Part shown: positions 4,378 to 20,593 of the stretch, one piece after another
Position numbering within the stretch: position 1 is the first letter of the stretch
How the letters are laid out: each line of letters starts with the position of its first letter
Assembly (NCBI GenBank): GCA_041478555.1
Contig: JBGOWI010000009.1
Coordinates: 3,875-67,874, forward strand
Source: Phycisphaerae bacterium
Lineage (GTDB): Bacteria > Planctomycetota > Phycisphaerae > Sedimentisphaerales > UBA12454
DNA length: 64,000 bases
Reading direction: 5' to 3'
Position numbers and translations under genes: made by a program
The notes under the pieces: model-generated
Told to the model about the DNA's origin: nothing
The model's database searches: none
What the model saw: only the letters and a program-made list of their open reading frames with translations

Positions 4378-4664
4378 TCTGTGGCCAAAAATATACTTTT
4401 TATATCCTCTGTGGCTTCAATCTTTTTCAAAATGCGCATAAAAAAACATGCGCGTTTTGGAAAAAATAAAAAATTTTTCTCCATATCTGACAAGCACTTA
4501 CAAGATCGGGGTGATAAATTTTTGCTCAAAATTCGTCAAAAACGCGCAAGTTTTTGGGTAATACGGCAGGACTATATGTCCTCCAGGATACAAAAAAAAG
4601 AACCGCGGATTTCACTGATTTCGCTGATTTCAATTTTATCAAATCCGTTTAATCCGTGTAATCG

Positions 4665-6980: not shown

Positions 6981-6981
6981 T

Positions 6982-7248
6982 GAATCCCGCACCTTCTAAA
7001 TATTCAATGTATCCCGCCTCAAAGCATTGGAGCGGGATGTATCACGTATATTTTTTGAAGAGTCGAAAGAGTAATAGCTTGTCGATTGGATATACCAAAG
7101 GTTTAAAAAAGATTGAACCCCGCACCTTTTGCACCGTACTAAAACCAAAAAAGAGTCGATTCAAAAGGCGCCTGACTCAAATGACTCTAATGCCGGATAA
7201 CACAGTACAAAAGGTGCGGGATGAACCGAAAGAAGGTGCGGGATGAAC
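6982..7248. mobile_element. Nested composite of CCCGCACC-family MITE-like elements filling the permease/GldG-like junction
   Basis: The outer copy (GAATCCCGCACCTTCT ... AGAAGGTGCGGGATGAAC) aligns with the 20476-20593 copy. The inner copy, 7119-7220 (102 bp), is bounded by CCCGCACCTTTT / AAAAGGTGCGGG. An extra hairpin, ATCCCGCCtcaaagcattggaGCGGGAT (about 7011-7038), is flanked by GTAT on both sides. Confidence 0.75.
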
Positions 7249-11367: not shown

Positions 11368-11943
11368 TTAGAGAGTTCTTGCCAATTCAGGATTATTTAA
11401 AGCTGTCGTCAGGTCGATATAGCGATAGGGGAAATTGAATTTTTCGCACAGTAACTTGAATTTTTCGACAGCTTCTTCGCTGAGTTTGTTTTGCAAATCT
11501 TTATCGGCTTTGCAGAAGAATATTCTGCAGCCTGCGAAACGATAATTTCTTACGCTGCATTTACCCCCACACCAATTTGCACCTCGATGAGGTGTTTTGA
11601 AAGCCAACCCAATTGGTTTTAAGTGTTCTTTTAAGCTTATCCGCCGCAATGTAAATTGGTGTGGGGGTGTACCATTTTCGAGATAAGGACAACAGGAGCC
11701 GGTCATTTTTCTTAATAGTTTAACATTTTCATAAAAGTATAACAGTTCTGGCGTTGTTGCAAAAAGTTTGTGGCCGAACGATTCAAAGCGGCAGCACTTT
11801 CCGCAGGCTGTACACTGATTGTTGAATGGTTCTATATTGGAGTCCAGCCAGTCGTATATTCGCTCAACTTCGCTGCATATCTGAAGGTTGTTTTGCATCA
11901 AGCCACCAGCGTTTTTGTTTTTTGATTTTCTGGATTTCATCAT
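11368..11943 (-). CDS. YkgJ-family Cys-cluster (zinc/iron-chelating, UPF0153) protein, copy 2, with in-frame repeat insertion
   Basis: CTACGKCCRFESFGHKLF (CxxCxxCC motif) and ...SCCPYLENG[insert]KCSVRNYRFAGCRIFFC. The start is uncertain (ATG 11943 or ATG 11898). Either start overlaps the upstream paralogue. Confidence 0.7.
   Translation of the reverse strand: MMKSRKSKNKNAGGLMQNNLQICSEVERIYDWLDSNIEPFNNQCTACGKCCRFESFGHKLFATTPELLYFYENVKLLRKMTGSCCPYLENGTPPHQFTLRRISLKEHLKPIGLAFKTPHRGANWCGGKCSVRNYRFAGCRIFFCKADKDLQNKLSEEAVEKFKLLCEKFNFPYRYIDLTTALNNPELARTL
11564..11667. mobile_element. CCCCACACCAATTT-family palindromic element inside YkgJ copy 2
   Basis: CCCCCACACCAATTTGCA ... TGTAAATTGGTGTGGGGG. 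It measures 102 bp between 4-C and 4-G runs and 104 bp with the 5-nt runs. The same TIRs occur at 15316-15417. Confidence 0.75.
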
Positions 11944-12445
11944 AAGTATAGAGCCTGCCTTTGTTTATACCGGGACATTTCATCGCAGCGGCATTCCAGT
12001 CATCCGGGTTGTTTAGATTGTTCGGCCAGAAAGGCCAGTTTCGGCACTGCATTGGACGAGCGTCATAAATCGCGCAGCCTTTAACCCCGCACCTATTGTT
12101 CTGTGTTTTAGCAAAATCAAAATCGCTTCGCTTGACATTTGTTGAATCGATTTTCTCTTGGTTTGGGTTTGGCACAATAGGTGCGGGATTTATATTCTTA
12201 AGAAAAACACAATCCTTAGAACAGGGATTTTCCCTTATCGAGAAGCTAAGCCTGAGTCTTTTAAGGAATTTTTTTCGCACATCGTTCGGGCTTTGGCTCA
12301 GATGCTTTGCAAGTATTTTGATTTCCTGTCTCGATATCCATATAACGCCCTCCTGCGGGCCGGAGCAGCAATTTCCGCACTGCTGGCAGGCAAAATGCAA
12401 ACCTCCAATGTACCAGGGCGTATTTGTTTTTTTGTCAACTACCAT
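11864..12445 (-). CDS. YkgJ-family Cys-cluster (UPF0153) protein, copy 1, with in-frame repeat insertion
   Basis: [24 protein letters not shown] (CxxCxxCC motif) and ...CVFLKNI[insert][20 protein letters not shown]. The start overlaps the ilvD stop by 7 nt. Confidence 0.75.
12086..12187. mobile_element. CCCGCACC-family palindromic element inside YkgJ copy 1
   Basis: CCCGCACCTATTG ... CAATAGGTGCGGG, 102 bp by hand count. It is translated (minus strand) as [34 protein letters not shown]. Confidence 0.75.
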
Positions 12446-15295: not shown

Positions 15296-16399
15296 ATGAA
15301 AAACCGGATTTTTATCCCCACACCAATTTGCATTGACCAGGAGAATTTTAAATTCGCCAGCAAGGCTGTTTCTGCTCAGCCTTTATTTGCCCGACCACAG
15401 TACAAATTGGTGTGGGGATTTACGATTGCGTTTGTGCTTTTCTTTGTCGGCTGTCAGGGGCAGCAGAAGTCGGGTGGTTTTAAAGGCAATCTGCTTTTAA
15501 GCGTCGATTTTAAACCTGATGTGCCATTGAAGTATAATTTTGTCTGTGAGAGACAGATAGCCCTTGACCTTGACCCATCGCACAAATACTCGAAAGGAGA
15601 AAAAGGCAGAGGCGGCAGCCAGAATATGGCTGAAAAACTCGAGATGGAAATTGTCTATAAGCCTGTCGAGATTGACCCTTACGGCTATTCAACAATCGAG
15701 GCAACCTGCAATTCGGCCAAAGTTACGCGCACCGCGGTAAGCAGCAGAGGGCAGGCAAAAGGCGATGCGGTTGAGTCTGCTGTCGGCAAAAGCTTTACAC
15801 TCAAGATTACGCCGACAGGCAAAATCATCGATTATACATCTCTTGAAAGTCTGGTCAAGGAGCTCGGCAACAGGGCCTTTGCAGATTCAAGCAGAGGCAG
15901 AATCAAAGACTCCGATATGATTATGGATTTTCTTGCCACACAGTGGTATATCTGGGATTTAATATCGAGTATAAAAGAGCCATTGAAAGGTGTTAAGAAA
16001 GGCCAGAAATGGAGCTCGCAGCTTCTGGCGCCGATGCCTTTCGTCTCAAAGGTCGGCAGAGATGTGGAGTACGAATTTGCAGGTGTTATTGAAGAGGGCG
16101 GCGTTTCTCTTGCCGAGATAACAAGCAGTTATAAATTGAGTAAGTTGCTGCCGGCGGCGCCTCTTCCTTACAGCGGTTCGTTTCAGATGAGGGGCACATT
16201 CGGCTTTTTAAGAGGATATAAGGTGCTGAGCATCGAAGGCAGCGGACGAGAGCTTTATGATATAGAAAGAGGAATTATTAAAAGTGATATTCAGCAGTAT
16301 CAGGCCAAGGTCGGTGCCTCCATTTTCGGTCTCGGCAGCGATACAATTGAGCCGAATATAGAAATCAACCAGACTATAACAATGACTTTGGCTGAATAA
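15296..16399 (+). CDS. Hypothetical lipoprotein with a palindromic element inserted in the signal peptide region
   Basis: The frame is open from ATG 15296 (MKNRIFI...) through the 102-bp element to GFTIAFVLFFVGCQG (lipobox FVGC). It is a paralogue of 14298..15257. The true start is uncertain; internal TTG/GTG codons at 15407/15410 are possible. Confidence 0.7.
   Translation: MKNRIFIPTPICIDQENFKFASKAVSAQPLFARPQYKLVWGFTIAFVLFFVGCQGQQKSGGFKGNLLLSVDFKPDVPLKYNFVCERQIALDLDPSHKYSKGEKGRGGSQNMAEKLEMEIVYKPVEIDPYGYSTIEATCNSAKVTRTAVSSRGQAKGDAVESAVGKSFTLKITPTGKIIDYTSLESLVKELGNRAFADSSRGRIKDSDMIMDFLATQWYIWDLISSIKEPLKGVKKGQKWSSQLLAPMPFVSKVGRDVEYEFAGVIEEGGVSLAEITSSYKLSKLLPAAPLPYSGSFQMRGTFGFLRGYKVLSIEGSGRELYDIERGIIKSDIQQYQAKVGASIFGLGSDTIEPNIEINQTITMTLAE
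15316..15417. mobile_element. CCCCACACCAATTT-family palindromic element inside the lipoprotein signal-peptide coding region
   Basis: CCCCACACCAATTTGCATTG ... GTACAAATTGGTGTGGGG, exactly 102 bp by hand count. It has the same orientation relative to its host gene as the 11564-11667 copy. Confidence 0.75.
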
Positions 16400-16421: not shown

Positions 16422-16931
16422 TTGAAAAGGAACAATCTCTGGGCGCCATGGAGGATTGGATATATTCAGGGCCTTGGCAAAAAACATGATTGTTTTATCT
16501 GCCATAATGTAAAGCATCCGCAGCAGGATGAGGAAAATTTCGTGCTGTGGCGCACGAAAAACTGCCTTGTCATGCTCAACAAGTTTCCATACAACAACGG
16601 CCATCTGCTTTTAGCCTCCATCAGGCATGTCGCCGGCCTCGATGAACTCGACGACGGTGAAATGCTGGAACTTGCAAAACTTATTATTGCCTCGCAGAAG
16701 GTTTTGACACTGGCGATAAAGCCGCACGGCTTTAATATCGGGACGAACTTCGGCAGATGTGCCGGGGCGGGCCTGCCCGACCATTTGCATATCCATATAG
16801 TGCCGCGATGGGACGGCGATACCAACTTTATGGATGTCTGCGCCGATACGGATGTTATAAGCCAGTCAATGAAAGATTTGTATAAACAGCTAAAGGCCGC
16901 AAGTGCTGAAAATAATCTGCCCGGTCTTTAG
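16422..16931 (+). CDS. HIT family protein (AP4A phosphorylase/ATP adenylyltransferase-like)
   Basis: LWAPWRIGYIQG N-terminus and histidine triad HLHIHIVPRW. TTG start. Confidence 0.85.
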   Translation: MKRNNLWAPWRIGYIQGLGKKHDCFICHNVKHPQQDEENFVLWRTKNCLVMLNKFPYNNGHLLLASIRHVAGLDELDDGEMLELAKLIIASQKVLTLAIKPHGFNIGTNFGRCAGAGLPDHLHIHIVPRWDGDTNFMDVCADTDVISQSMKDLYKQLKAASAENNLPGL

Positions 16932-16940
16932 TATAAAGTT

Positions 16941-17180
16941 AACAGTGAACAGTTTACAGTTTACAGAAAAATATGGAAGAGATGGATTTTAAATTTGATT
17001 TTGAGAAACTCAAGGTTTATCAGAAAGCGCTCGATTTTATCCACGAGATTTTTAAAATATATAAACGATTACCACGAGAGTATAAATATACCGTCGGCGG
17101 CAAAGAAATAACTAATATGTTTTTTGGATTGATAGAGTCGCTGGAATAATGCTGTAAACTGTACACTGTAAACAGTAAAC
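16941..17180. mobile_element. Inverted-repeat-flanked cassette carrying a truncated four-helix-bundle ORF
   Basis: The left flank is AACAGTGAACAGTTTACAGTTTACAG (16941-16966). The right flank is GCTGTAAACTGTACACTGTAAACAGTAAAC (17151-17180). The arms are reverse complements of each other (CAGTGAACAGTTTACAG versus CAGTGTACAGTTTACAG). Confidence 0.55.
16973..17149 (+). pseudogene. Truncated four-helix-bundle protein (23S rRNA intervening-sequence protein family) remnant, 58 codons
   Basis: Hand translation gives MEEMDFKFDFEKLKVYQKALDFIHEIFKIYKRLPREYKYTVGGKEITNMFFGLIESLE*. The N-terminal FEKLKVYQKAxDFxxEIxKIxKxxPxE pattern and the C-terminal xxMLxGLIxSL pattern match the family. The central ~60 residues of full-length members are missing. 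It falls below the ORF-track length cutoff. Confidence 0.55.
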
Positions 17181-17185
17181 TAAAA

Positions 17186-18334: not shown

Positions 18335-18363
18335 CCCGCACCTAAAGTTATTTAGGGTGCGGG
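18335..18363. repeat. Minimal CCCGCACC-family hairpin
   Basis: CCCGCACCTAaagttatttAGGGTGCGGG, in the convergent gap between dgt and the MFS gene. Confidence 0.55.
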
Positions 18364-20475: not shown

Positions 20476-20593
20476 GAATCCCACACCTTCTAAATATTCA
20501 ATATATCACGTATATCTTTTGAAGAGTCGAAAGGATAATAGAATTATAACAGGTTTAAAGAAAATTGGACAGAAAAGAAGGTGCGGGATTGAA
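20476..20593. mobile_element. CCCGCACC-family MITE-like element (simple, un-nested copy)
   Basis: GAATCCCACACCTTCTAAATATTCAAT...TTTTGAAGAGTCGAAAGGATAATAG...AGAAGGTGCGGGATTGAA. It measures 108 bp from CCCACACC to GGTGCGGG and is flanked on both sides by ATTGAA. It is collinear with the outer copy at 6982-7248. Confidence 0.75.

Follow-up and report, generated by a model that had tools for sequence, protein, structure and literature searches.

Palindromic miniature transposons read in frame in two ykgJ genes of a Phycisphaerae bacterium resemble Rickettsia palindromic elements and were probably acquired recurrently

Introduction

In-frame residence within bacterial genes has been documented for several transposable elements of the miniature inverted-repeat kind (MITEs), namely the Rickettsia palindromic elements (RPEs), intragenic ERIC sequences, QMITE1 of Coxiella and MITEb/MITEe of Anabaena (PMC10969869). 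In the account of them given there, RPEs are palindromes of ~100-150 bp that lie in frame in unrelated genes at presumably tolerated surface positions and that fall into several subfamilies (Ogata et al. 2000, 2002, via PMC10969869). Here we analyze a 64-kb stretch of DNA from a Phycisphaerae bacterium (GenBank assembly GCA_041478555.1, contig JBGOWI010000009.1, positions 3,875 to 67,874; hereafter the window) in which two neighboring genes of the ykgJ type each contain a palindromic element, termed A in ykgJ copy 1 and B in ykgJ copy 2. We consider it probable that these are RPE-like in-frame miniature transposons of a seemingly undescribed superfamily, and that they have been acquired recurrently.

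Like the RPEs, the elements described here are in-frame palindromes in unrelated genes that are read as extra peptide and that comprise several subfamilies. There are also several differences. The hosts are Planctomycetota (Phycisphaerae/Sedimentisphaerales-like), the elements have sharp CCCC[G/A]CACC termini and a clear 4-bp target duplication, their length (104 + 4 bp) is itself a multiple of three, and the same two sites have been filled repeatedly in many lineages. Given the different host phylum, we view them as an RPE analogue, and membership in the Rickettsia sequence families RPE-1 to RPE-10 is unlikely. The ERIC/IRU sequences of enterobacteria, QMITE1 of Coxiella burnetii and MITEb/MITEe of Anabaena PCC 7120 are likewise non-autonomous inverted repeats with open frames that form in-frame fusions or insertions (PMC10969869; PMC5896051). 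However, they differ in termini, duplication and hosts, and the literature that we searched held no report of them from Planctomycetota or Patescibacteria.

Results

Two intact ykgJ genes carry 104-bp palindromes in frame

The original prediction placed a ~102-bp palindromic element in frame in each ykgJ gene. The positions and the open reading frames (ORFs) were confirmed, and the unit was refined to 104 bp plus TAAA, as 102 bp is the span from repeat to repeat whereas the true element runs for 104 bp from C-run to G-run (Table 1). On the plus strand, CCCGCACCTATTG (12086-12098) faces CAATAGGTGCGGG (12175-12187) in element A, and CCCCACACCAATTT (11565-11578) faces AAATTGGTGTGGGG (11653-11666) in element B. 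The perfect termini thus measure 13-14 nt, and the arms traced by a repeat finder are longer, at 17 nt (94%) and 19 nt (95%). Both minus-strand ORFs are free of stop codons across their elements.

Comparison of filled and empty sites shows that an insertion comprises the 104-bp element plus a 4-bp TAAA duplication, which sums to 108 bp or 36 codons, so that every insertion keeps the reading frame. Specifically, the empty copy 1 site of two syntenic loci, L119 and L120, reads AATA-TAAA-CGGC, and the filled site of a third syntenic locus, L118, reads TAAA, then CCCCGCACC...GGTGCGGGG (104 bp), then TAAA. For copy 2, the filled site of L118 reads GGTAAA-CCCCCACACC...GGTGTGGGGG-TAAATGC and the empty site of locus L130 reads GAT AAA TGC. 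The window alleles have since departed from this pattern. In copy 1, 9 bp (TAAATGGCT), one TAAA copy included, are deleted in frame beside element A, which leaves a net gain of 99 bp (33 aa), and the outermost C of the element (the first C in coding orientation) is mutated to T. Of the two TAAA copies that border element B in copy 2, it is the upstream one, at 11668-11671, that has changed, to TACA.

The elements add 33-36 aa to the two predicted proteins. The translation of element A opens with (N), followed by 35 residues, and that of element B reads (T)PPHQFTLRRISLKEHLKPIGLAFKTPHRGANWCGG; the peptide ends, PAP.../...RCGV for A and PPHQ.../...WCGG for B, are the terminal repeats read in frame. 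As RNA, element A folds with a 17-bp terminal stem at -37.8 kcal/mol (z -7.0) and element B folds at -42.2 kcal/mol (z -5.3). A search of Rfam 15 over 139 kb returned tRNA matches only, with none at an E value below 5 in 11400-12300, and the idea that the interiors of A and B are degenerate tRNAs was dropped for want of Rfam support.

The host genes themselves appear sound, as all conserved cysteines are present and full length is retained in both, in keeping with the original view that they are intact genes and not pseudogenes. Copy 1 is a member of Pfam family PF03692 by a score above the gathering cut-off of 23 bits, and it matches that family at 32.8 bits in two pieces with the insert and at 42 bits in one piece without it. 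Copy 2 has no Pfam match as it stands and reaches 17.6 bits, below the cut-off, once its insert is stripped; some of its homologues carry the NCBI name YkgJ. When profiles made from cleaned alignments of insert-free homologues of each gene were compared with hhalign, they matched with a probability of 70% (E 4e-5), and we therefore take the two genes to be distant paralogues. By this alignment the two insertions share one short loop, which lies between C-x-[FY]-L and the following Cys, and their positions agree to within 1-3 residues, so the claim that an equivalent loop was hit in both paralogues is reasonably supported. A search of Protein Data Bank sequences found no solved relative of either protein.

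Homologues of copy 1 (184) and copy 2 (207) were drawn from metagenome-assembled genomes (MAGs) of Phycisphaerae, Sedimentisphaerales and other Planctomycetota. They are mostly 140-160 aa long without an insert, and the alignments for both genes agree with the expectation that the 34-36-residue segments would be missing from most orthologues.

The organization of the gene pair is itself variable. In the window the two genes overlap by 80 nt (11864-11943), with copy 2 in the +1 frame, and this junction is one of the clusters of mismatches between the window and L119. The overlap is 32 nt in L118, the genes lie apart in L119 and L120, and many homologues consist of one fused ykgJ ORF of 283-331 aa. 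A nucleotidyltransferase/HEPN pair, of the kind typical of toxin-antitoxin modules, lies between ilvD and ykgJ copy 1 in L118 (9198-10004) and is absent from the window, L119 and L120, and in L120 a gene for an MFS transporter follows ykgJ copy 2.

Filled and empty alleles coexist among close relatives

The three syntenic loci have nucleotide identities to the window of 94-98% (L119), ~92-94% (L120) and 75-87% (L118), and the region syntenic with L119 covers about 4.7-20.4 kb of the window. Within it L119 shares element B in copy 2, and it has neither element A in copy 1, nor a further B copy that the window carries in a lipoprotein gene, nor a composite element found at a permease gene junction. 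Three of the four elements compared are thus polymorphic between these loci. The same filled alleles recur in independent assemblies from NCBI, JGI, ENA and Logan.

Filled alleles of both genes are scattered over neighbor-joining trees of the insert-stripped proteins, with at least seven A-filled and at least four B-filled alleles each standing beside an empty sister that is ~90% identical. Furthermore, homologues P0003 and P0009 carry an A copy at a different position, a second TAAA of copy 1 (between CPGI and NKG), and the site-1 A copy of the window is nearer to site-2 copies elsewhere than to the site-1 copy of L118.

The age of the inserts was addressed through synonymous divergence (dS), which is 3-10 times lower in the inserts (0.14-0.38) than in their flanks (0.8-2.1). 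For B, the insert dS is 0.23 against a flank dS of 1.6-2.1 between the window and L118, and 0.14 (with a nonsynonymous divergence, dN, of 0.22) against 0.8-1.5 between locus L129 and the window. For A, comparison of the window with sites 1 and 2 of L118 gives insert dS values of 0.38 and 0.24, respectively, against a flank dS of 1.24-1.42. In three of these four pairs the inserts have a dN/dS ratio of 0.27-0.51, ~2-4 times the 0.11-0.15 of their host, and the ratio for L129 against the window is 1.6. Since these ratios lie above that of the host, the A and B peptides are probably constrained weakly at best. A weakly constrained ancient insert would have diverged at least as much as its flanks, and the conclusion that the inserts are younger than their host lineages, with the sites filled repeatedly, is therefore well supported. 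Excision is likely to contribute to the pattern but, given these dS values, would not account for everything.

The number of fillings at the two sites exceeds what random insertion would give over an estimated tens of thousands of genomic TAAA/TTTA sites, which points to either a hot spot or lateral spread of filled alleles. In addition, nested insertions at TGAA adjoin existing element termini, and these suggest some attraction to sequences that resemble element ends.

Codon phase probably sorts the two subfamilies between the two genes

To explore why element A is found in copy 1 and element B in copy 2, we inserted intact A and B copies in silico at a TAAA target, with either orientation combined with each of the three codon phases. 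A TAA stop always results if the T of the target occupies codon position 1. Element A is stop-free in one of the six combinations, with the T at position 2 and in one orientation, and element B is stop-free in two of the six, with the T at position 3 in either orientation. The loop target of copy 1 (ATA-AAC) presents position 2, and that of copy 2 (GGT/GAT-AAA) presents position 3. Thus, a plain TAAA target combined with a translational filter explains the distribution of A and B, because the codon phase of the loop TAAA fits the open frames of each subfamily.

Each gene contains only three TAAA sites in the phase required by its subfamily, and a hit in the equivalent loop is therefore a coincidence of roughly 1 in 3. 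Of the three in-phase sites of copy 1, two are occupied somewhere among the homologues. The presence of two subfamilies in one loop is consequently mostly explained by target, phase and selection. It had been proposed that either selection for tolerated in-frame insertions or a target in the loop was responsible. Both parts appear to stand, with a plain TAAA in both loops and a phase filter acting on what lands there, and it is the choice of one over the other that falls away.

A and B belong to one superfamily with further copies in the window

The two elements were originally assigned to two unrelated families of terminal inverted repeats, and this was refuted. A and B share a terminus of CCCC[G/A]CACC followed by A/T-rich bases, with GGTG[C/T]GGGG at the opposite end, a length of 104 bp and a TAAA duplication, and because of these common traits they can be classed as subfamilies of one superfamily. 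Their shared core CCCRCACCWWTT has eight matches in the window, where dinucleotide shuffles predict 0.03, and the 64 kb hold seven such elements (Table 1). The expectation that the terminal repeats would recur elsewhere was borne out both here and in other genomes.

Table 1. Coordinates of the ykgJ genes, the elements and their target duplications in the window
Feature	Position	Strand	Description
ykgJ copy 1	11864..12445	minus	intact ORF, 193 aa, YkgJ/CxxCxxCC (PF03692), holds element A
ykgJ copy 2	11368..11943	minus	intact ORF, 191 aa, distant YkgJ-like paralogue, holds element B
Element A	12085..12188	minus	104 bp, termini CCCCGCACCTATTGT / ACAATAGGTGCGGGG, in ykgJ copy 1
Surviving TAAA copy, element A	12189..12192	minus	TTTA on plus strand
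Element B	11564..11667	minus	104 bp, termini CCCCCACACCAATTT / AAATTGGTGTGGGGG, in ykgJ copy 2
Downstream TAAA copy, element B	11560..11563	minus	from filled/empty comparison
Second B-type copy	15315..15418	plus	104 bp, perfect TTTA duplication (15311-15314, 15419-15422)
Composite C-type element	6985..7243	plus	terminus TCCCGCACCTTCT, TGAA duplication (6981-6984, 7244-7247)
A'-type copy	7118..7221	plus	104 bp, perfect TGAA duplication (7114-7117, 7222-7225), nested in composite
C-type copy	20480..20587		intergenic, CCCACACCTTCTAAAT ... AGAAGGTGCGGG
Mini-element, termini only	18335..18363		CCCGCACC...GGTGCGGG, between convergent ORFs
Mini-element, 51 bp	32435..32485		ACCCCGCACCTTC ... GAAGGTGCGGGGT, intergenic

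The junction of the genes for an ABC-2 permease and a DUF7088-ABC_transp_aux protein (6981-7247) is filled by the nested composite, which consists of at least three elements. In L119 (12820-12890) this junction is an overlapping stop/start, GGATGAAC; in the window the composite splits it, and the ATG at 7243 is rebuilt from the last base of the element plus the TGAA duplication. At the same TGAA in L118 (15240-15510) different mini-elements are nested, with TGAA again after each. The C-type terminus was likened to an IS5 end (GAAGGTGCG), a comparison that was dropped because the resemblance is in inverted orientation relative to the element end. Two further inverted repeats of the window may represent other repeat families, one at 4442-4555 with other termini (AAAAACATGCGCGTTTTGGA/...) and arms 74 nt apart, and one at 16927-17184 with 33-nt ACAGT-rich arms that lie 192 nt apart.

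In-frame residence extends to other genes. In the window, the second B-type copy lies in frame at the 5' end of an ORF for a DUF6263 lipoprotein, MKNRIF[34 aa]GFTIAFVLFFVGC, and the L118 orthologue of this gene carries an 11-codon mini-element. Elsewhere, the GcvT protein of L034 has a 36-aa insert between its two domains, the Pfam match of archease P0226 spans its insert, and a GATase1-like protein of 876 aa (L073) contains an in-frame element. Residence in frame with family-specific peptides is thus seen in YkgJ, GcvT and archease, and the original suggestion of mobile palindromes read through in the manner of RPEs is upheld. If ORFs are crudely delimited from stop to stop, 18 of 112 elements are in long ones. 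A-type copies also occur outside ykgJ, and those with perfect termini in metagenomes are mostly intergenic.

As for the lipoprotein gene, the B copy (within 15296-15422) is placed between the ATG and the lipobox, so that the product either has 34 extra signal-peptide residues or starts at a TTG/GTG in the right arm of the element. The L119 orthologue has an N-terminus that is unrelated in sequence.

The superfamily has the duplication signature of a cut-and-paste MITE

We scanned a one-genome-per-species collection with the pattern CCCCRCACCWWTT-N60-90-AAWWGGTGYGGG, which gave at least 117 loci (L001-L117) where a handful of chance matches is expected by a rough estimate from the information content of the pattern. 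These loci are labeled Planctomycetota, many Patescibacteria/CPR, Bdellovibrionales, Gammaproteobacteria, Omnitrophota, Elusimicrobia, Nitrospinota, WOR-3 and others; among the first 80 there are ~28 from Planctomycetota, 26 from Patescibacteria, eight from Bdellovibrionales, four from Gammaproteobacteria and three from Omnitrophota. Overall, CCCC[G/A]CACC elements of 80-115 bp with a T-N-N-A duplication are found in MAGs labeled as more than 10 phyla, with the reservation that the taxon given for some third-party assemblies may not be reliable; L118, for one, bears the label Planctomycetaceae but has its synteny with Phycisphaerae-like loci.

Of 125 elements, 33 directly abut a perfect direct repeat of 4 nt on both sides, against 3.3 expected from permuted partners and two in offset controls. 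The flank consensus is T-N-N-A in an A/T-rich context, and the flank logo shows no further motif. This duplication signature indicates that the superfamily would be a cut-and-paste MITE. The other traits agree with this assignment, as the elements are small (104 bp, where MITEs stay below ~300-500 bp) with 17-19-nt arms at 94-95% complementarity, the duplication is evident both from filled versus empty sites and from the 4-nt repeat statistics, and the copies are dispersed and polymorphic. A length of 104 bp leaves no room for a transposase gene, and no autonomous partner was found in the fetched loci, viral contigs or plasmids. Literature searches on the sequence strings and on MITEs in these phyla found no description of the terminus or of the family.

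One set of loci (L005:3552-3660, L022:1001-1109, L035:2362-2470 and ~17 more) forms a subfamily with variable arms and a conserved center, AGGCG[A/T]AGCCGCCT[A/T]YCGGCT, that contains a GCGAAGC-type mini-hairpin. Its hosts are MAGs of Saccharibacteria/Patescibacteria, 'Bdellovibrionales' and Gammaproteobacteria, and covariation beyond the terminal stem is slight.

Other members have an entire tRNA gene inside, flanked by the two arms, and are themselves inserted in the T-loop or anticodon loop of an outer tRNA gene (L004:6018-6120, L060:2797-2902, L037:4276-4389, L032:1415-1511, L111:657-761 and L011:76-185). Removal of the element plus ~4 nt in silico restores a junction-spanning tRNA in six of seven cases. 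The anticodons of inner and outer tRNA agree in three genomes of Patescibacteria (Arg-tct, Arg-tct and Lys-ctt), but the two tRNA sequences differ in the L004 pair, the one that was compared by eye. A tRNA-carrying element thus looks like it replaces the gene that it destroys. The outer tRNA of L011 (1-215) also has a ~31-nt D-loop insertion with two small hairpins, unrelated to the CCCCGCACC element. A literature search did not find tRNA-in-tRNA insertions of this family described.

Several known systems resemble these elements in part. IS1380/piggyBac ends begin with CC(C) and their A/T-rich duplications measure 4-5 bp, with piggyBac using TTAA and excising seamlessly; the elements described here likewise have CC(C) ends, a 4-bp A/T-rich duplication and seamless empty sites. 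In contrast, their target is T-N-N-A and not strictly TTAA, and no transposase partner was found in the sequences searched. IS1380 is used as the prokaryotic outgroup of piggyBac (PMC10813416). Neisseria Correia elements are similar in their ~100-150-bp length, terminal inverted repeats, short duplication, hundreds of copies and RNA hairpins. They differ in that they duplicate TA and act as intergenic regulators, and we know of no in-frame residence of Correia elements. REP/BIME sequences, which are mobilized by RAYT, are also abundant short palindromic repeats of bacterial genomes, and REPs are characterized as 20-40 bp long and extragenic, with a GTAG/CGTC tag and no target duplication (PMC3733652). 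A REP/RAYT origin was rejected, as a length of 104 bp, CCCC ends, a 4-bp duplication and occurrence within genes set the present elements apart. We also rejected an intein (the insert is 36 aa against at least ~130 aa, starts N/T-P in place of Cys/Ser, and ends G-V or G-G in place of His-Asn before Cys/Ser/Thr) and an intrinsic terminator (for which the order of the arms is wrong), and an integron attC site was considered and rejected as well.

Discussion

In the course of events that we propose, an element inserts at an A/T-rich T-N-N-A target, in this case TAAA, and the 4 bp of the target are duplicated. Selection would then remove insertions that contain a stop or fall outside a tolerant surface loop, so that the open-frame subset stays in genes, where the inserts would be translated as mostly unconstrained loop peptides. 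The elements would have been active recently, with both ykgJ sites filled repeatedly in different lineages, either through de novo transposition into a preferred site or through recombination that imports a filled allele. The elements would be mobilized in trans by a transposase that, to judge by end sequence and duplication length, may be of the IS1380/piggyBac type.

Several results weigh against this account. That the inserts are translated is something we infer from intact frames alone, and AlphaFold models built on alignments of 18-19 sequences have mean pLDDT values of 42 and 52, too low for an extruded loop to be recognized. In two protein searches the A and B peptides were almost confined to YkgJ proteins, plus one archease. 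One of these searches was not exhaustive (its query included the peptide of the L034 GcvT, a positive control that it missed) and the other covered one representative per 50% cluster; such confinement is more site-specific than random insertion followed by a filter predicts. The mutated TACA copy of the duplication is common to the window, L119 and L129, which argues for descent or transfer of one filled allele over independent transposition. A mobilizing partner has likewise not come to light in the material searched: no terminus pairs 0.5-4 kb apart that enclose an ORF were present in ~1 Mb of fetched loci, all-versus-all clustering of 635 ORFs from these loci gave no transposase-like cluster, viral contigs contained no match to the elements, and BLAST of two elements against plasmids returned chance hits only.

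The sharing of TACA with the distant L129 is also what would be expected if filled alleles spread laterally, through recombination or gene conversion of a short tract in a homing-like manner without an endonuclease. This explanation has further observations on its side. The A copies resident in ykgJ share 84-89% identity among themselves and no more than 78% with any other A-like copy, the differences that set the window apart from L119/L120 gather no farther than ~45 nt from the A insert in a region that is otherwise mosaic, and the flank residues of the window are the KGC of filled alleles and not the SRTC of the closest empty relatives. However, additional mismatch clusters lie away from the insert, the flanks of distant lineages are already 21-30% diverged close to it, and recombination at ~75% identity is expected to be inefficient, and we accordingly see lateral spread as a possible but not the favored explanation. 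Less likely still is that each gene received one ancient insertion that was then lost many times by precise piggyBac-style excision, with the empty alleles as revertants. It is true that the empty sister of each filled allele displays an undisturbed TAAA or TAGA site, that the filled haplotype of the permease junction (GGCAGGCTGATGAA...) is present in the window and the distant L118 whereas L119 is seamlessly empty, and that the 4-bp duplication and CCC...GGG ends resemble those of piggyBac, which excises precisely. Against this, the low dS of the inserts is the reverse of what an old and weakly constrained sequence should display, as it should match or exceed its flanks, and similarity among the elements does not track the orthology of the sites.

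It is also improbable that the extra loop has been exapted and is kept for a benefit to YkgJ. Both frames end in ...RCGV or ...WCGG right before K(G)C, which puts a Cys 3-5 residues ahead of a conserved Cys of the cluster, the insert dN/dS is 0.27-0.38 in some pairs, and inserts are kept in at least 10 lineages. Yet it is the in-frame reading of the terminal repeat that supplies this added Cys, as a by-product and not through selection on the protein, the closest relatives manage without an insert, and the insert dN/dS is elevated over that of the host in three of four pairs and reaches 1.6 in the remaining one. Finally, we give hardly any credence to the notion that the segments are native, lineage-specific YkgJ loops, or that the genes are pseudogenes or assembly artefacts. 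The failure of copy 2 to reach the Pfam threshold would fit such a notion. It is countered by the palindromic nature of the DNA with its target duplication and its copies in intergenic DNA and unrelated genes, by the absence of the insert from most orthologues, by the recurrence of the filled alleles in assemblies from four sources and by the retention of full length and all conserved cysteines.

Recurrent acquisition of RPE-like in-frame elements thus remains our preferred reading for the ykgJ pair. A wider proposal, which we put forward tentatively and regard as doubtful in its full extent, is that of an undescribed, cross-phylum superfamily of ~104-bp cut-and-paste elements, marked by CCCC[G/A]CACC ends, a 4-bp T-N-N-A duplication and seamless empty sites in the manner of piggyBac/IS1380, that would enter and leave genes reversibly because 104 + 4 is a multiple of three, that would return repeatedly to the YkgJ loops, and that in Patescibacteria would carry whole tRNA genes into tRNA genes of the same anticodon and so make up for the gene that is destroyed.

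In-frame palindromes are a known phenomenon, and it is the element family that seems undescribed. What is new beyond another RPE-like case is the 108-bp arithmetic, the sorting of subfamilies by phase and the repeated filling of the same loops, together with the filled/empty polymorphism in near-identical genomes and the apparent breadth of the superfamily, tRNA-carrying copies included. 'Selfish' palindromes in frame have so far been an oddity seen in Rickettsia and in few lineages besides. The present elements offer a simple mechanical account of them, in which the unit of 108 bp is divisible by three and the subfamily that survives at a given site depends on the codon phase of TAAA. They also point to a putative transposase acting in trans. 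As filled and empty alleles occur in near-identical relatives, gain, loss and fitness cost should be directly measurable in metagenomes. If the breadth of the superfamily holds, these elements would be a widespread source of protein loop variation, and also of gene-call artefacts and assembly breaks, in genomes that are known only as MAGs.

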